A DNA stretch of 64,000 nucleotides from Escherichia phage EP75, in sequence record MG748547; one strand, given 5' to 3'. The translations under genes and the position numbers were made by a program. Each line of letters begins with the position of its first letter. The stretch's first letter is position 1. Positions 2,321 to 19,078 of the stretch are shown here, piece by piece. A model generated the notes under the pieces. That model had not been told where the DNA came from and ran no database searches. It saw only the letters and a list, made by a program, of their open reading frames with translations.

Positions 2321-4708
2321 ATGGCCATCCCATCTTTCTTGAACTTTCTTGAAGAGTCTAAACAATTAGACGAAGCGTTTAACTCATCCCCGTATGAATT
2401 GACATTCGGTAAGAAGAACGCTGGTGACATTTTCTTCACATTTGTTGATGAAGACGAAAAAGAATTCCGCATCCAATTTTATACCCCGCAGGGGCTGGGC
2501 AAGAACGTTCGTCAGGTCTTCATAGGCCAGAAACGTGGTTCGACCTATCCAGACGCAATCGGTCGTTTCAAAAACCCAATGCGTGTCATCGCATCCATGA
2601 TCGAAGCAACAAAGCAATTCATGGCGACGCCTTTGGGGAAAACCATTGACGGCTTTGCAATTAACTTCTCCAAGAAAGCATTGGAACGTGGTGTTACCCT
2701 CCTGCCGAAGATCATCCGTCAGTCCGGCCTGAAGCAGAAGCTCAATGTCATGGACCTGACGTATACCCCTATCCCTGATCGTGCATTCGTATGGGTTGTG
2801 CGTAAAGGTAAGGATCCTGCTCAGGTATTCGATGGTCCGAAAATGAAAGGCGTGACTTGGGACGACCCAGACAAAGTCGGCGACGTTCCTGACCAGGCTG
2901 CTCGTGACGCCGCACTACAAGGTGACATAGATGATTTGAGCCAAGCCATAAATGCCGATTCTCGCTGGATTCTGACCAAGGCTGATCATACTCAGCCTAT
3001 GCTGGTCTGGTCTGGTAAAGAACGTGGGCGGACTATTACCGCCAATATCGCACCTCACGCGAATGAACCTGGTGTGTATGCTGGTAGTATCATGAACGAG
3101 AAACGGATCCGCGCTCAATCCCCAGACGCTATTGTACGCCAACTGGGATTACCGCAGATCCCTGTGAATATTCTGAATGATTTCACCAAGCAGTCGTCCA
3201 TCTTCTGGAAAGAGATGACGGGAGATTCTGGAAAAATAGACATGCAGACTTTGCCAAAAACAGGATCTGTGGATGACTTACGAAATCAGGGTTATATTGC
3301 TCGCCTTCTGGGGATTGTAGACACATATGCTCCACAACAGGTCGGTATGTATGCAGGTGAAAAACTAACACGAATCGGCGCGGGCAAATATCGTACTTCG
3401 GGTGGTCTGGACATTCAGGTTTATTTCTGGGGAATTGTCAACGGAAAACTTTCTGTAGAAGTAGTATCAGATTTGTCTGGTCATTACCAACTTATGCTGG
3501 AAGGAGACGTGAAAAACGCCGCTTATGAAATAGTGGGCGCAATCTCCCGTGCAGCCGATTCTCAATTTGCGGGAGAAGTAGAATGCCGTGTGGTTCCTAT
3601 CAATGGTGCCCCATATCCGATTCAAAAAATTTCCCGTTCTCAGGGATATTCTTACGTTGATTGTGGTTCTTTCACATTGAAGATCGCTGACGCTCTGCTG
3701 AATCGGTTTACCTTGGGCAAGGCGGTCAAACTTGATCTGATGAAAGAGTTTCCTCGTACAACATTCAAAGTCCGCTATGATTGGCGTGGAAAAGATACTC
3801 TGTTGGTTCAATCTTCCGACGAGCGTACTATCTTTGGTGAAATCAACACCAATTCCAGTGAAAATGCAGTGATCACTGCAAACATCAAAGTACCAAGCAA
3901 CGCTAAATTTTTTGGTGAAACCGTTCATGGCTTCTCTGTAGCGTGGGATTTCCAGTTCCCTGCTGGTAGCAAGTTGCAAGCCGCAAGATTCGTTACCAAC
4001 GTAACTTACGATTTTGATCGAAATAAAGCCAACATCACCACCATGTTGACTGAAAATGGTCGAAATGTGGTAGACAGCAATGGATATGATATTTCGTTGT
4101 CTGTCAAATCAGTGCAAGATGCATTGGATGAGATTTCTCGACGCCTGAAAGACGCGGCTTCGCAACTGAGCCATCTCAGTTCATCAAACTATAACCCTAA
4201 CAATCTGTTCCTGAATGACATCACTGTCAGTAAATTTGGCGCGATTATGTTCCAAGACAAAGATTTGGCACAGTCCAGGAACCGCACGGCAGTCATTGAT
4301 GCTTTGGCTCGGGCTAAAGATCAGGCTGCTGGAGGTAAGAATGCAGGTGATCTGGCCACCTATGCCGAATCCATTCGTGACAGCGCTCCTAATGGACGAG
4401 ATCTGGATTGGCAGGTATACACAGCCAGTAATGGTACAGTTCTGAATGTTGCTTGGGATATCACTTTCCGTCGCAATACGACCGAAGGAGCATATCGTGA
4501 ATTCAAGGATCAGATCAACCGTGCCAACCAATACCTGCAAACGGTATACAACGACGCGAAATCTAAAGGCTATAATCCTACCGAGCCAAATCTCATGACT
4601 CTTGAACGCGCTCGCCAATCCGACGAATGGGCTATGAGTAATGGTGATAGTGCATACAGTGAATATGAACAATCGCTGGGTGGTAATCTTCAGATTAGTC
4701 TGAAATAA
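2321..4708 (+). CDS. large hypothetical protein (795 aa)
   Basis: Long uninterrupted ORF with AGGAG RBS; no catalytic motif recognised. Confidence 0.6.
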   Translation: MAIPSFLNFLEESKQLDEAFNSSPYELTFGKKNAGDIFFTFVDEDEKEFRIQFYTPQGLGKNVRQVFIGQKRGSTYPDAIGRFKNPMRVIASMIEATKQFMATPLGKTIDGFAINFSKKALERGVTLLPKIIRQSGLKQKLNVMDLTYTPIPDRAFVWVVRKGKDPAQVFDGPKMKGVTWDDPDKVGDVPDQAARDAALQGDIDDLSQAINADSRWILTKADHTQPMLVWSGKERGRTITANIAPHANEPGVYAGSIMNEKRIRAQSPDAIVRQLGLPQIPVNILNDFTKQSSIFWKEMTGDSGKIDMQTLPKTGSVDDLRNQGYIARLLGIVDTYAPQQVGMYAGEKLTRIGAGKYRTSGGLDIQVYFWGIVNGKLSVEVVSDLSGHYQLMLEGDVKNAAYEIVGAISRAADSQFAGEVECRVVPINGAPYPIQKISRSQGYSYVDCGSFTLKIADALLNRFTLGKAVKLDLMKEFPRTTFKVRYDWRGKDTLLVQSSDERTIFGEINTNSSENAVITANIKVPSNAKFFGETVHGFSVAWDFQFPAGSKLQAARFVTNVTYDFDRNKANITTMLTENGRNVVDSNGYDISLSVKSVQDALDEISRRLKDAASQLSHLSSSNYNPNNLFLNDITVSKFGAIMFQDKDLAQSRNRTAVIDALARAKDQAAGGKNAGDLATYAESIRDSAPNGRDLDWQVYTASNGTVLNVAWDITFRRNTTEGAYREFKDQINRANQYLQTVYNDAKSKGYNPTEPNLMTLERARQSDEWAMSNGDSAYSEYEQSLGGNLQISLK

Positions 4709-4713
4709 GTCAT

Positions 4714-4729
4714 AGCCCCTTCGGGGGCT
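4714..4729 (+). other. GC-rich stem-loop (agcccc-ttcg-ggggct) without U-tract
   Basis: Perfect 6-bp stem with UUCG-type tetraloop immediately after the stop of the 795-aa gene; tail is A-rich rather than U-rich. Confidence 0.4.
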
Positions 4730-4759
4730 AAATACATCAAAATCCTTAGGAGATCCACG

Positions 4760-5329
4760 ATGAAACCGTTTATAGAATATTTTAAAGAACAAGCTCAACA
4801 ACCGCAAACTCATGGCGGCATACAAGGCAAAAGTGTAACCATCACCAAACAGGCCGACGGAACCCAATGGTGTACTGGTGCCACCGTGACCCAGATCACT
4901 CCAGATAATCAGGCCGACATCTATAATCTGGAATTGACTAACGGCAACACCACCAAAGTAAAACTCACACCGGACCAGGTTCATGCAGTTTCTGTCGGTA
5001 AAGATGTGGTTGCCGTTCATGACGGTTTTGAGTTCTTCTTTGGGAAAGATGCCAGCAAAGGTCAGGTCACAGAATCCTATGCCCAAGAATTGGCGAACAT
5101 GGATAAGATGATCGGTAAAGCGCTGGGCGTTGGCAAATCTCGTAAAAGCGGTCGTACAGAGTTTGAATATTCCGGTATTCCTGGTATTGGAAAACCTGTC
5201 GCAATCGACTTCGGCGGAGAAGACGATCCATATGTAATTGTCACAGTCGCTGGCAAACAGCATGACATCAGTAAGGGAAAAACCCTAGCTGCGGACATTG
5301 CCAAATATATCGGCGTTAAACCTGTCTAA
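4760..5329 (+). CDS. hypothetical protein
   Basis: 189-aa ORF with AGGAG RBS. Confidence 0.45.
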   Translation: MKPFIEYFKEQAQQPQTHGGIQGKSVTITKQADGTQWCTGATVTQITPDNQADIYNLELTNGNTTKVKLTPDQVHAVSVGKDVVAVHDGFEFFFGKDASKGQVTESYAQELANMDKMIGKALGVGKSRKSGRTEFEYSGIPGIGKPVAIDFGGEDDPYVIVTVAGKQHDISKGKTLAADIAKYIGVKPV

Positions 5330-9044: not shown

Positions 9045-9839
9045 ATGGCCATTCTAAAACTTGGCAACCGAGGTTCTGAAGTCAAATCACTTCAGCAAAG
9101 CCTCAATAAAATCGGGTTCTCTCTTATAGCTGATGGCATATTTGGTAAGGCGACCGAGAATGCTGTCAAATCCGTTCAGGCAGGTGCCGGACTGGTGATT
9201 GATGGTATTGCAGGTCCAAAAACCTTCTATGCTATCCGTAATGCCGGAGACGCTCATCAGGAACATCTTACCGAAGCCGACTTAGTTGACGCAGCGCGTG
9301 AACTTGGTGTCGAACTGGCCAGCATGAAAGCTGTTAACCAGGTCGAATCTCGGGGTACTGGTTTCACCAAAACAGGTAAGATCAAAACTCTGTTCGAGCG
9401 CCACATCATGTATAAGAAAGTGGCGGCTAAATTCGGACAAGCAAGAGCCAATGCTCTGTACCAACTTTACCCAACATTGGTTAACCCCAATTCTGGTGGC
9501 TATATCGGCGGAGACGCGGAGTTGGAACGCCTTCAGGGTGCAATCGCCCTTGATGAGGACTGCGCGTACGAGAGTGCGTCCTACGGCTTATTCCAGATCA
9601 TGGGGTTCAATTGCCAGATATGTGGTTATCCGAACGCCAAAGAAATGTTCACAGATTTTCTGACTGGTGAACGTGCACATCTTCTGGCATTTGTGAAATT
9701 CATCAAAGCTGACGCCAATATGTGGAAAGCATTGAAGAACAAAAATTGGGCTGAGTTCGCCCGTCGGTACAATGGTCCAGCATATGCCAAGAACCAGTAT
9801 GACACCAAACTAGCGGCGGCATACAAGAGTTTCTGTTAA
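9045..9839 (+). CDS. endolysin: peptidoglycan-binding domain plus N-acetylmuramidase-like domain
   Basis: N-terminal PG-binding-type repeat (GSEVKSLQQSLNKIGF...DGIFG...DGIAGPKT); C-terminal YGLFQIMG lysozyme-like motif. Confidence 0.6.
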   Translation: MAILKLGNRGSEVKSLQQSLNKIGFSLIADGIFGKATENAVKSVQAGAGLVIDGIAGPKTFYAIRNAGDAHQEHLTEADLVDAARELGVELASMKAVNQVESRGTGFTKTGKIKTLFERHIMYKKVAAKFGQARANALYQLYPTLVNPNSGGYIGGDAELERLQGAIALDEDCAYESASYGLFQIMGFNCQICGYPNAKEMFTDFLTGERAHLLAFVKFIKADANMWKALKNKNWAEFARRYNGPAYAKNQYDTKLAAAYKSFC

Positions 9840-15696: not shown

Positions 15697-16077
15697 TCAA
15701 TTTGTCCGTTTCAACCATATGGTATCTGTTATCGGCTCTGGGTTGTTAACCACATAAAAAGTTATGGTTACGCCCAGAGAATGATAATCGTCAGACAATG
15801 ACACATCAACTGATTGTATCTCCGCTCTCGGTTCAAATAAAGCAATCGCGTCTTCAACTTTGTTTTTAACGTCAACCTGAATTGTGGGGTTTGTATTTTC
15901 CCCCAGCATGGTATACAGCCCAGCTCCGATACTTGGGTATGTCGGCCAATCCCCAACAGTCGACATCACGATATTCCGCACGGATTGCAACACGGCATAA
16001 ACACCTGTTTTCTTAGTGACATCTTTGGTGACCGGATGCATGCCAAACTTCAGGTCAATGTCCTTGTACTCTTTCAT
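15697..16077 (-). CDS. 25: baseplate wedge protein (T4 gp25-like)
   Basis: Internal Met start at 16077; gp25/GPW-family-like core and size (~126 aa); adjacent to the gp5-like gene. Confidence 0.5.
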   Translation of the reverse strand: MKEYKDIDLKFGMHPVTKDVTKKTGVYAVLQSVRNIVMSTVGDWPTYPSIGAGLYTMLGENTNPTIQVDVKNKVEDAIALFEPRAEIQSVDVSLSDDYHSLGVTITFYVVNNPEPITDTIWLKRTN

Positions 16078-16141
16078 GTTAAACCCCTTTGGATATTGCC
16101 TCTCCGGCACGAGAGGGCAATATCTGCCCTCGCCAGTGTAA

Positions 16142-17767
16142 TCATGCGTCTTTACCACCAAAGTTGCCGCCATTATCCTCTAGTTCCGGTTTTATATCAA
16201 TTGGACCAGGACCAGAAGTAGATACTGGAGTTGCCCCAGCGCGTGATGCAGCACGACCAGCACCTTCAGCATATTTGATGTTGCCTTCAATAGTCTGCGC
16301 CACCGACAACTTATCACAAACTATTTCACTAGCCAGTATTTTAGGCACTTTCAAAGTATTGGAAACTTCCAACATCTCGCAGATGATACGCATCACGTTT
16401 TGCGCTTGAATTTCGGCCAGCTGTGAAAATTTCAACAGCGCCGTGCCAGCAACCACATTGGAATAGTTCGATGAATGTAGATGATAGACCTCACCTGTCT
16501 TGCGCTGAACTTCAGTCCCACCAATGGTCAGGTTGTGATCACGACCAACATAGTAACGTTTGTCAAACATCGTCAGATCATAGTGATCTTTAACTGATTT
16601 ATTGACCACGTCCCCGTCAGGAAGCATCTGCTTATAAGACCCCGAGGAGTGCATCCAATGGAGACGTTCCCCGCCTGGTGTGTCATCAACCTCCATAATA
16701 TGTCCCGAACGAGATGCCATGACATTGTTGTAAGGATAACGAGACCCGCCAGCAGAAGGAACCGACACCTCTCCTGTGTTATCAATATCTTGAACACGCC
16801 CAGAAGGAGGCGGAGTTTCCTGAACTTTTGGTGTACGATCAGGGATTGGCTCAGACCATTTACCATTTTGTTGTGTAGGAGCCGCCGATGCTGTCGTAGC
16901 AGGACCAGGCCAACGATAACCCAACACAGATGAGCGGCTGAAGCGACTCACCTTCACAGAATCTGATTGGTTGCCTCCAATACACCAAACATAATTGGCA
17001 TCGAATTTCTGCACGAACGCAACGTGTCCGAATGTTGGGTTGTTGCCACGCCGGAATACAACAACAGCGCCGTAGCGGGGTTCCGACAAAGGGGAACCCC
17101 ATTGCAAATATGAACGAGCCAAAGCCGAGCGCGTTGAAGTGTATCCTGCTTGGATCAACACCCATCCCACAAATGATGCACACCAGCTGACTTCATCTTC
17201 CGAAGCGCCCAAAGATGTTGTCTTGTGATATTCCAAAATCCTTGGGTTATTATTGAATTTACCAGAATATTCTTTGACACCTAATTCACCACGAGCCACT
17301 GTCATCCATTTCTCAGGATCATAACCGTCCACAGGAGGTTGAGGTTCTGGTTGAGGTTCGTCTTCAATCTTGACAGGAACATTTTCAACGGCGTTATATT
17401 TCTGCCTTTCTATAGATTGAACGACCTGGCCCAGCGCCAACGGGTTTGTGTCTGAACCATCTGTTGGTGTCGCCGCTGGCCAAACCCAGGCGATACGAAT
17501 ATTTTGGTATGCTTCATCCAAAGCAAAACCCATAACATCCGACCCGACTGTAATACCCGTTGGAGACCAGCCTAAACCTGCCGAGGAGGCGTTAGATGCT
17601 GGCATGAGCATTTTACCCCAAGGCAATAATTCGGTAGGTAAGAGAGTGGTATCTTCCGTGTGTACACCATAGATGCGCACAGCGACGCGCCCGTTCTGGT
17701 CGGGATCATTCACGTCTTCAACGCGCCCGTAAAACCAACGCAAGTTGTCTAACATATTGAAACCCAT
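16142..17767 (-). CDS. 5: baseplate hub/cell-puncturing protein (gp5-like) with central CHAP peptidase domain
   Basis: N-terminal gp5 OB-fold-like segment (NLRWFYGRVEDVNDPDQNGRVAVRIYGVH); central Cys/His pair (SWCASFVGW ... GHVAFV) typical of CHAP domains; no lysozyme motif. Confidence 0.6.
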   Translation of the reverse strand: MGFNMLDNLRWFYGRVEDVNDPDQNGRVAVRIYGVHTEDTTLLPTELLPWGKMLMPASNASSAGLGWSPTGITVGSDVMGFALDEAYQNIRIAWVWPAATPTDGSDTNPLALGQVVQSIERQKYNAVENVPVKIEDEPQPEPQPPVDGYDPEKWMTVARGELGVKEYSGKFNNNPRILEYHKTTSLGASEDEVSWCASFVGWVLIQAGYTSTRSALARSYLQWGSPLSEPRYGAVVVFRRGNNPTFGHVAFVQKFDANYVWCIGGNQSDSVKVSRFSRSSVLGYRWPGPATTASAAPTQQNGKWSEPIPDRTPKVQETPPPSGRVQDIDNTGEVSVPSAGGSRYPYNNVMASRSGHIMEVDDTPGGERLHWMHSSGSYKQMLPDGDVVNKSVKDHYDLTMFDKRYYVGRDHNLTIGGTEVQRKTGEVYHLHSSNYSNVVAGTALLKFSQLAEIQAQNVMRIICEMLEVSNTLKVPKILASEIVCDKLSVAQTIEGNIKYAEGAGRAASRAGATPVSTSGPGPIDIKPELEDNGGNFGGKDA

Positions 17768-17788
17768 TAGTCAATTAGAATCATGGGT

Positions 17789-17796
17789 TATTTATG
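17789..17796 (-). promoter_or_regulatory. candidate late promoter (CATAAATA, 7/8 match to T4 TATAAATA)
   Basis: Minus-strand CATAAATA 22 nt upstream of the gp5-like ATG at 17767. Confidence 0.35.
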
Positions 17797-18093
17797 GCGG
17801 GGATTTGAAATCTGTCGAATAGTAATATTATAGGAAGCTCTGCTTCCGTTCAACTTTATTCTTTTCATTTCTACTCGCTGAAGCTCGTAACACCGCCTTG
17901 ACAGGCAGTCCCATTCCAATGCCATGGAGGCATAAAGGCGAGGAAAATACTGTACACCTCAGAACATGCGTAGAAAAGGATTATTTTTGCTTCAAAACAA
18001 ATTCAAACCCCAATTTACACAACACTTACTTCAGCAACAACGGTTTTATAGCAATTTAAGGTTAAACGTTCCTGTCTTAACCTATAAAACAGT

Positions 18094-18123
18094 TAAGCAA
18101 AGAAAACCCCACATTACGTGGGG
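18094..18123 (-). terminator. intrinsic terminator (minus strand)
   Basis: ccccac-attac-gtgggg hairpin (18107-18123); on the minus strand it is followed by ttttctttgc. Confidence 0.5.
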
Positions 18124-18274
18124 TTGGAAGATTTCTTAGACAATCGGATCTTCAGTGTCTCTGTTAGCAAATCAAGATGCCAAGGCATCGACTCGCTTAT
18201 TTCAAATATGCTATAGCCATGTGCCTTTAATTCGTCACACATCACAAAGTAGGAGAGTAAATCAATTTCAAAAA

Positions 18275-19078
18275 TTAAATGAAAATTTCAGTGACACTGT
18301 TAAATTTGACTTCGTGTTCTTTCCCACACGAAGGACATTTAATTTTCGTCGCGTAACGGATACGAGGAATCTTTTTAAAGAAATCGTCGGATATATCTTG
18401 AACAATCTCAGATTCAATATTTTCCCCCACCCATTTAATGAATTCATCCTTGACACGTTGACGTTCTTTAGCAACATCGGGAGATATGCCAGGCTCTGCT
18501 GGATTCTCTACTTTCCAAACCTGACCATCATCGTCATACAAACAATCAATAAAGGTCGCGATCATTTGCTCCACAGATGATGCTTCGTTGAGCACTGAGG
18601 CGTCCGAGAAGGACGGTTGACGCATCTTGATGTGATAGCCACCAGGGAGGTCAAATGTTTCCCTGAAGCCTTCTGGGGACACGCATTTCACTTGGTTGAG
18701 GGGGATCGGTAAAACAAGTTCTTGACCGCATTCTTTAAGGCCAGAAACTGGTTCTTCGCCTTCATCTGTGGCAGCTGGAACTTTGTTGTTGCATTTGTAA
18801 CGTATCTTCATGATCTCACCGATAGATATACAGCGCATCTTTAAAAATACTTCTTCAGTAACACCGATCGGCAGTTTACTAAAGGGAACCCCAGCGTCAA
18901 CACAACTATCAAATAGTTGCTCCAGCGTCGCCACACGTTCACTCATAGGAGTGTTCGGATCAGCAACCTGAAGTAACATGGTCTGTTGCCCTGCTGTGAA
19001 GGCGCGGTATTTGATCACAGTCGGCCAGAAATCACTTTTATGTGTTCTCTCAGTTTTGGGCAATGATGGTAAATTCAT
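18275..19078 (-). CDS. late-expressed protein with C-terminal zinc ribbon, possible baseplate component
   Basis: 267 aa; CPSCGKEH near C-terminus; GGAG RBS; TATAAATA late-type promoter ~30 nt upstream. Confidence 0.45.
   Translation of the reverse strand: MNLPSLPKTERTHKSDFWPTVIKYRAFTAGQQTMLLQVADPNTPMSERVATLEQLFDSCVDAGVPFSKLPIGVTEEVFLKMRCISIGEIMKIRYKCNNKVPAATDEGEEPVSGLKECGQELVLPIPLNQVKCVSPEGFRETFDLPGGYHIKMRQPSFSDASVLNEASSVEQMIATFIDCLYDDDGQVWKVENPAEPGISPDVAKERQRVKDEFIKWVGENIESEIVQDISDDFFKKIPRIRYATKIKCPSCGKEHEVKFNSVTEIFI

Follow-up and report, generated by a model that had tools for sequence, protein, structure and literature searches.

A gp5-like gene in the baseplate cluster

An intact open reading frame (ORF) of 541 aa plus stop lies at positions 16142..17767 on the minus strand of the window, that is, of the whole 64,000-nucleotide stretch of Escherichia phage EP75 (MG748547) that was analysed. 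The ORF described by the initial annotation is thus real, and it encodes a gp5-like baseplate central spike with a predicted peptidase module. In most relatives, as in the Marshall RefSeq annotation, translation starts at Met5 (17755). Judged by these sequence comparisons, this codon is probably the conserved start, giving 537 aa. The gene belongs to a Vi01-like Salmonella/E. coli phage (Kuttervirus, Ackermannviridae), and its product is the counterpart of T4 gp5. The tail-associated 'lysozyme' of the group formed by Vi01, PhiSH19, Marshall, Maynard, phage 38 and CBA120 is encoded by this same gene, with 98-99.8% identity across the 541 aa; the Vi01-like phages have the same neighbours as those found here, without substantive difference.

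Both neighbouring genes are on the minus strand and encode baseplate proteins. Downstream lies a gp25-like baseplate wedge subunit (15697..16077; Pfam GPW_gp25 E 2.8e-8; PHROG 261/43), 126 aa long when counted from Met33 of a mechanical ORF of 158 aa, the length also given in the Marshall annotation. The upstream neighbour is a gp26-like baseplate hub subunit (18275..19078; Pfam T4_baseplate E 1.7e-51; PHROG 150), annotated in phage 38 as 'Gp26 baseplate hub subunit'. The unannotated gap of 507 bp upstream of the spike gene (17768-18274) contains a terminator-like hairpin, and no Rfam family was found in it.

The gp5-like flanks

By PDB phmmer, T4 gp5 structures aligned to the flanks of the protein only (query 4-87 and 339-434). 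A full-length AlphaFold2 monomer, computed from the family alignment A1, had a mean pLDDT of 48.8, and no residue within 289-541 reached 50.

The gp5-type N-terminal OB domain spans residues 5-100 (17468..17755, minus strand) and was recognised by Pfam, PDB phmmer and BLASTP to T2 gp5. Pfam Gp5_OB matched residues 39-98 (E 5.4e-10; 40.1 bits, against a cut-off of 25 bits). The match is partial, covering profile positions 11-70 of 144, and the domain is trimmed relative to that of T4/T2 gp5. Residues 4-87 aligned with the T4 gp5 chains at i-Evalues of about 1e-11 to 1e-14, and likewise with the 9f4a spike. In T4, the OB domain of gp5 docks to the gp27 hub. Neither a gp27 nor a gp5.4 partner was identified within the window, which represents ~40% of the genome, and tblastn with T2 gp5.4 (PAAR) and gp5.1 gave no match in it; in having no gp5.4 homologue, the window, though not necessarily the phage, differs from T4.

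A linker follows at residues 101-149 (17321..17467, minus strand), delimited by the family alignment, BLASTP to T2 gp5 and the low pLDDT of the full-length model. It combines a conserved DTNPLALGQ motif, aligned by BLASTP to GNDTNVLNQG of T2, with a Pro/Glu-rich stretch (EDEPQPEPQPP). A second linker, rich in Pro, Thr and Ser, occupies residues 288-340 (16748..16906, minus strand; conservation 0.57, pLDDT <50) and, in the alignment with T2, corresponds in position to the linker of T4 gp5. The latter is cut during assembly, at Ser351/Ala352.

Residues 341-439 (16451..16747, minus strand) are homologous to the onset of the C-terminal beta-structure of T4 gp5, as revealed by PDB phmmer and BLASTP. 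The onset motif YPY..SGHI.E.DDTPG.ER.. begins at query residue 341, equivalent to T4/T2 residue 384, and query residues 339-434 aligned to gp5 383-475 with i-Evalues of about 4e-15 to 8e-15.

The remaining residues, 440-541 (16145..16450, minus strand), form a family-specific C-terminal module without octapeptide repeats of the T4 type. Gp5_C and Gp5_trimer_C had no Pfam match in the window protein, whereas both matched the T2 control. Only three scattered octapeptides were counted, compared with 13 in-register V/I-x-G octapeptides in T2, and a search for lag-8 periodicity showed none. The module includes a low-complexity stretch (residues 506-522) and, near its end, an invariant L..D.GGNF motif. 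When a profile built from the 106 C-terminal aa (A4) was run against PDB sequences, its matches were at chance level only (best E 0.77), and against PHROGs the same 106 aa retrieved their own family only. By these sequence searches, the last ~100 aa are without a recognisable relative in PDB or PHROGs. The C-terminus may be a beta-helix with another type of repeat.

Two claims of the initial annotation concern the flanks. It had likened the N-terminus to the gp5 OB segment, which the Gp5_OB match and the T4 gp5 alignment bear out. It had also described the C-terminal region as shorter than the T4 beta-helix. This did not hold: from the conserved onset to the C-terminal end we measured 201 residues here and 192 in T2/T4 (about 200 vs 190 aa).

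Virion spike or endolysin

Many TIGR02594 proteins, the family to which the central domain belongs (see below), are small and stand-alone, some of them carrying a phage endolysin label; a 238-aa homologue in phage ICP1 is located among nrd/phoH genes. The protein could accordingly be read as a soluble lysis enzyme instead of a virion spike. We consider this extremely improbable. The protein has the gp5 OB domain and the gp5 C-terminal onset, and its gene is flanked by those of the gp25-like and gp26-like baseplate proteins. In a close relative, Sajous1, mass spectrometry of virions purified on CsCl gave 20 spectra for peptides of the 'tail associated lysozyme' (PMC10892097). Moreover, the window encodes a dedicated endolysin at 9045..9839 on the plus strand, composed of PG_binding_1 (Pfam E 3.6e-15) and an N-acetylmuramidase domain (PF11860; Muramidase E 4.1e-58) and annotated 'endolysin' in Marshall. 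The lysis glycosidase is therefore encoded elsewhere than in the spike gene.

The central domain

The protein carries, at residues 150-287 (16907..17320, minus strand), a TIGR02594-type papain-like cysteine peptidase domain (Pfam CHAP; NlpC/P60 superfamily fold), in the position of the lysozyme domain of T4 gp5. The NCBIfam model TIGR02594 was covered over its full length (profile 2-132 of 132, residues 154-286), with E 8.1e-39 and 132.9 bits against a curated cut-off of 70.55 bits. Pfam CHAP (PF05257) matched residues 191-266 (profile 4-81 of 81; E 3.5e-10) with 40.7 bits, the gathering cut-off being 26 bits. Hundreds of stand-alone TIGR02594 members are 45-59% identical to the domain. The Pfam NLPC_P60 model (PF00877), in contrast, misses the protein (no match at E ≤ 0.1), which sets it apart from the NlpC/P60 (MEROPS C40) enzymes.

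Against PDB, single-sequence phmmer of the central domain alone gave nothing significant, and a fold comparison was therefore necessary. Matches of the confident central-domain model were to papain-like peptidases only, across three structure libraries. The model has the papain-like alpha+beta arrangement of the NlpC/P60 fold, with Cys at the N-terminus of a helix and His on a beta-strand; CHAP (C51) domains were not its closest structural neighbours. Sequence identity to every solved relative was at most 23%. At the sequence level, gp5 matches prevailed in a PDB search with profile A2, in which the flanks were still present, so the search was repeated with the cropped domain alignment A3; the best match was then Tae3 (E 0.0011).

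Most GenBank records name the protein 'tail lysozyme', and the label of PHROG 430 also counts in favour of an ordinary tail lysozyme whose central domain is a divergent lysozyme or transglycosylase. This reading was rejected, and we give it practically no chance. Phage_lysozyme and SLT had no Pfam match in the protein at E ≤ 0.1, while the same search recovered Phage_lysozyme in the T2 gp5 control with E 1.3e-12. T4 gp5 structures left residues 88-338 unaligned, and the confident domain model matched papain-like peptidases only.

Predicted catalytic residues

Within the peptidase domain, Cys196 (17180..17182, minus strand; motif SWCASFVGW) is the predicted nucleophile and His248 (17024..17026, minus strand; motif FGHVAFV) the predicted catalytic base. 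Both are invariant in the 17 family members of A1, down to 34% identity. In A2 and A3, His remains invariant and conservation of Cys is 90% or higher, with a TIR-fusion protein as the sole deviation. Cys196 aligns with the Cys of the DCS.. motif in CwlO, CD630_03720 and Acd33800, and Tae3 also has a Cys aligned with it; in NlpC/P60 structures, the residue aligned with His248 is the His of GHVGIY. Gly264, Gly265, Asn266 and Gln267 are invariant in all alignments, stand-alone TIGR02594 proteins included. Asn266-Gln267 (16967..16972, minus strand), in the invariant GGNQS motif, provide the candidate third polar residue; from the His+17/18 spacing, one of them may orient the His as the third member of a triad. 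In CHAP enzymes, the third residue is typically at His+17/18.

An inactive variant is known in this family, P0038, in which Ala replaces the Cys. The central domain might be a catalytically dead remnant serving only as a structural spacer or a peptidoglycan-binding module, but we judge this very unlikely. Cys196, His248 and GGNQ are retained by all spike-type members, and TIGR02594 is matched along its entire length (E 8e-39). In addition, no other part of the protein is as well conserved as this domain, which has a mean pairwise identity of 0.81, compared with 0.52-0.68 elsewhere, and 72 of 138 columns invariant. The enzyme domain is under strong constraint.

The proposal in the initial annotation of a CHAP-like domain instead of a lysozyme agrees with the domain search (CHAP and TIGR02594, no Phage_lysozyme), and the lysozyme fold that would have contradicted it was not seen in the structural matches. 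The Cys/His pair it had noted is present as Cys196 and His248, both invariant on alignment. Its interpretation that the cell-wall chemistry differs from that of T4 is supported, the protein having a predicted peptidase and no lysozyme domain.

Comparison with known spikes and peptidases

The OB - enzyme - C-terminal spike layout is shared with T4/T2 gp5 (PDB 1K28, 1WTH, 5IV5), as are the N-terminal OB domain, the DTN motif that follows it, the onset YPY..SGHI.EFDDTPG.ER and the baseplate gene neighbourhood; the total length is similar (541 aa here, 575 aa in T4/T2 gp5). Differences lie in the shorter OB domain and the enzyme cassette, a cysteine peptidase here and a T4-lysozyme-like muramidase there. 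The octapeptide-repeat helix and Gp5_trimer_C of T4/T2 are undetectable here, and there is no relation in the last ~100 aa.

The NlpC/P60 (C40) D,L-endopeptidases Acd24020 (7CFL, C. difficile), LytE (8I2F) and CwlO (8WT3), both from B. subtilis, and SagA (6B8C) from E. faecium are 17-23% identical to the domain. These relatives are secreted autolysins, whereas the carrier here is a phage spike. The third catalytic residue also appears to differ, being apparently in GGNQ, about 18 residues past His; in C40 enzymes the spacing from His to the following His/Asn is short.

Peptidase-bearing contractile hubs directed at Gram-positive targets are represented by the CHAP domain of the Staphylococcus phage 812/K hub protein (9EUM, 9EUF) and by the diffocin Hub-Hydrolase CD1368 (8V3W). 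They are 14-18% identical to the domain, act on a thick Gram-positive wall and carry their peptidase without the frame of gp5 OB domain plus gp5 C-terminus.

The same enzyme family occurs, at about 50% identity, on a gp5/gp27-related spike of a T6SS (type VI secretion system), the evolved VgrG P0161 (Phage_GPD, Phage_base_V, Gp5_trimer_C and CHAP, with TIGR02594/CHAP being C-terminal). A further protein, P0064, combines Gp5_OB, SLT and CHAP. In Stenotrophomonas, TIGR02594 effectors are linked to VgrG4 (PMC13055248). The T6SS domain is a C-terminal toxin behind the spike that is set free inside a competitor, whereas the phage domain sits between OB domain and spike and would serve phage entry.

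Proposed role

Taken as a whole, the protein is very probably a gp5-type spike carrying a TIGR02594-type entry peptidase instead of a lysozyme. We infer its peptidase activity, the bond cleaved, the timing and the trimeric state of the spike. As a trimer, the spike would bring three copies of the peptidase. Sheath contraction would drive it through the outer membrane and place the peptidase domains at the peptidoglycan, where local cutting of peptide stems or cross-links would make an opening through which the tail tube can pass. The final lysis of the host would be left to the separate muramidase endolysin. Since the last ~100 residues are without a recognisable relative, the spike-tip part of this mechanism is drawn entirely from the T4 analogy.

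By analogy with the closest structural relatives, the most probable scissile bond would be gamma-D-Glu-mDAP. The same spike in the same role could instead bear a D,D-endopeptidase, cutting mDAP-D-Ala cross-links, or an N-acetylmuramoyl-L-alanine amidase. Tae3, the best sequence-level match, is presumably a cross-link (D,D) endopeptidase, and some enzymes of the CHAP superfamily are MurNAc-L-Ala amidases. We hold such a specificity to be a realistic possibility, while leaning towards the D,L-endopeptidase. A literature search on this protein, its close relatives and TIGR02594 biochemistry retrieved annotation-level mentions and no enzyme assay, structure or mutant.

Annotation and significance

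The domain make-up is correct and ordinary, and has been known at the annotation level since 2011, when the PhiSH19 genome paper listed the 541-aa protein as 'Gp5 OB family & CHAP domain (CL0125)' (PMC3220722). Public databases hold the same domain calls; the product is named 'cell wall-associated hydrolase' in phage 38, and a prophage-like copy is named 'TIGR02594 family protein' by NCBI. Most of the ~250 database records nevertheless use 'tail lysozyme', a misnomer inherited from T4 via the homology of the flanks. That such misannotation spreads is exemplified by the ICP1 enzyme of 238 aa, labelled 'Gp5 baseplate hub'. The error would no longer be passed on if the protein were renamed, for instance to 'baseplate central spike with TIGR02594/NlpC-P60-type peptidase'.

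It is possible, but rather doubtful, that the protein stands both for a cysteine-peptidase virion lysin of a Gram-negative contractile-tail phage and, in residues 440-541, for a different spike-tip architecture. A different fold of these residues could, if true, mean such an architecture. The practical value is modest and current understanding is not overturned.

The enzyme slot of the gp5-type spike emerges as an exchangeable cassette, with lysozyme, M15 peptidases, SLT and TIGR02594 found behind the same OB domain, and the same peptidase family also sits on T6SS VgrG spikes. According to a 2017 review, the dsRNA phage phi6 provides the only virion lysin with demonstrated endopeptidase activity among phages that infect Gram-negative hosts. 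If the enzyme is active, this gap in Gram-negative virion-lysin endopeptidases would be filled for more than 250 sequenced phages. Biocontrol of Salmonella and E. coli O157 makes wide use of Vi01-like phages, and an attack on peptide stems rather than glycans at entry could bear on host-range limits set by peptidoglycan modification and on enzybiotic design.

Gene boundaries, neighbours and phage relatives

The gp5-like gene was intact at 16142..17767 on the minus strand, encoding 541 aa, in a phage that is Vi01-like (Kuttervirus, Ackermannviridae). Its DNA was 98.1-98.6% identical to that of Salmonella phages BRM 13314, Marshall, Maynard and Mooltan, and of Escherichia phages ECML-4 and 3HA11. 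The gene was matched in 253 phage records, with at least 80% coverage in 248 of them. At the protein level, identity reached 99.8% with phage 38 and 99% with Vi01. Met5 (MLDN..) is the first residue in the Marshall RefSeq record and in homologues at greater distance, and therefore the true start is probably at 17755. The mechanical ORFs probably start too far upstream both here (16142-17767) and in the adjoining gp25-like wedge gene (15697-16173). The latter was annotated in Marshall with 126 aa and a start at 16077 (15697..16077, minus strand), which removes the apparent 32-nt overlap with the gp5-like stop.

On the other side lies a gp26-like hub gene (18275..19078, minus strand), separated by a 507-bp gap (17768-18274) that is unannotated in Marshall too. 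This gap held a terminator-like hairpin with a 9-bp stem (18125-18105, minus strand), and an Rfam search of it returned no family. The sequence CATAAATA, which precedes the gp5-like start by about 30 nt, resembles a T4 late promoter. No gp5.4-like PAAR gene was found in the window, which spans only part of the genome.

A papain-like peptidase domain in a gp5-type spike

The N-terminus matched Gp5_OB (Pfam, E 5.4e-10, over the curated cut-off), and residues 4-87 aligned with T4 gp5 chains (1K28, 1WTH, 1PDL) and with the 9F4A central spike. Residues 88-338 gave no alignment at all to T4 gp5 structures. In this central part, residues 191-266 matched Pfam CHAP above the cut-off (E 3.5e-10). The match of residues 154-286 to NCBIfam TIGR02594 was much stronger, covering the whole model (E 8.1e-39, 132.9 bits vs a 70.55-bit cut-off). 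The same Pfam search detected Gp5_OB, Phage_lysozyme (1.3e-12), Gp5_C and Gp5_trimer_C in T2 gp5, and found no Phage_lysozyme in the query.

Cys196 (SWCASF), His248 (FGHVAF) and G264-G265-N266-Q267 were invariant across 17 aligned family members with identities as low as 34%, and still conserved after diverse stand-alone TIGR02594 proteins were added. In a domain-only profile, the family Cys and His lined up with the DCS../GHVGIY motifs of CwlO, CD630_03720 and Acd33800, and with the equivalent residues of Tae3, all at marginal E-values (1e-3 to 4e-2). Alignment thus does show the Cys/His pair whose absence would have spoken against the initial annotation.

The domain was also modelled alone (residues 145-300, aligned with 22 relatives), with good confidence (mean pLDDT 89.9, pTM 0.86). 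Foldseek against the PDB matched this model exclusively to papain-like peptidoglycan peptidases: Acd33800, Acd24020, MepS, LytE, LysK CHAPK, LysGH15 and the phage 812 hub CHAP. Among the viral models in BFVD, family members came first, followed by CHAP, NlpC/P60, TIGR02594 and endolysin entries. No lysozyme or transglycosylase appeared among these structural matches, and a lysozyme fold for the central domain was rejected on these grounds. The initial annotation, a gp5 OB N-terminus followed by a CHAP-type Cys/His centre instead of a lysozyme, was thus borne out for both domains, and failed only on the length of the C-terminus. At the level of the clan, "CHAP" can stand as a name; a TIGR02594-type member of the NlpC/P60-CHAP superfamily is the more fitting description of the domain.

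Predicted activity and mechanism

Conservation across 14 full-length spikes was highest in the peptidase region (mean pairwise identity 0.81, 72 of 138 columns invariant), compared with 0.52-0.68 for the OB domain, the gp5-like beta region and the C-terminal module. Such conservation is consistent with a working enzyme more than with a spacer. A dead copy is exemplified by P0038, an unrelated 336-aa protein with a TIGR02594 domain fused to TIR_2 (PF13676). There, Ala replaces the catalytic Cys (DWASAF), and the copy is probably inactive and binding-only.

The model places C40 D,L-endopeptidases as the nearest structural neighbours, and for this reason gamma-D-Glu-mDAP is the favoured scissile bond. 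A D,D-endopeptidase or an amidase would together be a serious alternative, at somewhat over one chance in three: Tae3 and MepS were likewise high-ranking matches, and amidases occur among CHAP-clan enzymes. The initial proposal, that the wall-cleaving chemistry would differ from that of T4, is supported by inference.

The protein is encoded among baseplate genes and combines a gp5 frame (OB domain and onset of the C-terminal part) with a well-folded, conserved Cys/His peptidase between two Pro-rich linkers. By analogy with T4 gp5, it would trimerise and sit below the gp27-like hub. Sheath contraction would push the spike through the outer membrane, and the three peptidase domains would then cleave peptide stems or cross-links locally, letting the tube pass. 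CsCl-purified Sajous1 virions contained peptides from the "tail associated lysozyme" (PMC10892097). The endolysin is encoded separately (9045..9839, plus strand) and, by domain composition (PG_binding_1 and PF11860), is an N-acetylmuramidase; the same phage would thus use a glycosidase for lysis and carry a peptidase on the virion.

The C-terminal region

The C-terminus had been considered shorter than the T4 beta-helix. Counted from the YPY..SGHI.E.DDTPG.ER motif (query 341 = T4 384) to the end, it has 201 residues, vs 192 in T2/T4; the difference lies in content, not in a shorter length. In T2 gp5, V/I-x-G octapeptides occur 13 times in register, and hydrophobicity shows an autocorrelation of 0.31 at lag 8, whereas the query had three scattered octapeptide matches, no lag-8 signal, and no Pfam match to Gp5_C or Gp5_trimer_C.

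Homology to gp5 stops near residue 439. The remaining module (residues 440-541; 16145-16450, minus strand) had no detectable homologue beyond the family, nor a detectable relative in a PDB search. Some of its stretches alternate in hydrophobicity as strands do (LKVPKILASEIVCDKLSVAQTIEGNIKYA), one is of low complexity (Ala/Gly/Ser/Pro), and an invariant L..D.GGNF motif lies near its end. The module could extend the trimeric helix by repeats of another kind or form another tip structure; it may act as the spike tip or as the place where a tip protein docks.

Orthologues of 605-617 aa (P0014-P0022, e.g. from Serratia phage vB_SmaA_3M and Erwinia phage phiEa2809) have an extra C-terminal extension of ~70 aa past the DNGGNF motif (columns ~765-848 of the spike-family alignment), absent from the window protein. 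This extension is made up of a Ser/Thr/Ala-rich linker plus a conserved end of ~25 aa (VV.LRQ.G.KP....SNG..WE), and PHROG and PDB searches gave no match to it.

Spread of the peptidase module

The peptidase domain was used to scan 1.84 billion representative proteins exhaustively with HMMER. This yielded 8,351 clusters at E <= 1e-3, of which 239 reached E <= 1e-30. The top matches were nearly all stand-alone proteins of 150-250 aa, 45-59% identical to the spike's domain, and gp5-type fusions were a small minority. Among other carriers, P0188 combines Gp5_OB with this domain. P0161 (956 aa), a metagenomic/genomic protein from the scan, has all the parts of a T6SS VgrG (Phage_GPD, Phage_base_V, Gp5_trimer_C) and, at its C-terminus, a TIGR02594/CHAP domain that shares ~50% identity with the phage enzyme, so that one peptidase family is mounted on phage and T6SS spikes alike. 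Other database gp5-OB proteins have Peptidase_M15_3, Peptidase_M15_4 or Phage_lysozyme in place of this domain. In gp5-like spikes the enzyme slot is thus an exchangeable cassette, which this family took from the large TIGR02594 pool.

Further architectures were P0064 (1129 aa), with two wall-degrading modules (Gp5_OB, SLT transglycosylase and CHAP/TIGR02594), and P0063 (655 aa), with Phage_lysozyme, CHAP, LysM and NlpC/P60. Rhizobium phage RL38J1 gp064 (288 aa; 3971-4837 of its locus) has the OB and peptidase domains without the C-terminal spike part. The Vibrio phage ICP1_2004_A protein (2752-3468 of its locus) matched in the enzyme domain only and is encoded among nrd/phoH genes; its gp5-type name therefore looks like a transferred mis-annotation.

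Relation to previous knowledge

The OB and CHAP composition is not new and was known at annotation level. Precomputed Pfam calls (PF05257 and PF06714) exist for the whole family, NCBI named one copy "TIGR02594 family protein", and the phage 38 spike protein is annotated as "cell wall-associated hydrolase". Structures are known for the peptidase-bearing hubs of Staphylococcus phage 812 and of diffocin. The literature searched held no biochemical or structural study of an Ackermannviridae gp5-like protein. According to a 2017 review, virion-lysin endopeptidase activity is generally ascribed to phages that infect Gram-positive bacteria, and phi6 P5 is the sole demonstrated Gram-negative case (PMC5380687). 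The annotation itself is thus old, and a modest opportunity lies in the enzymology of the spike peptidase and in the C-terminal module at residues 440-541.
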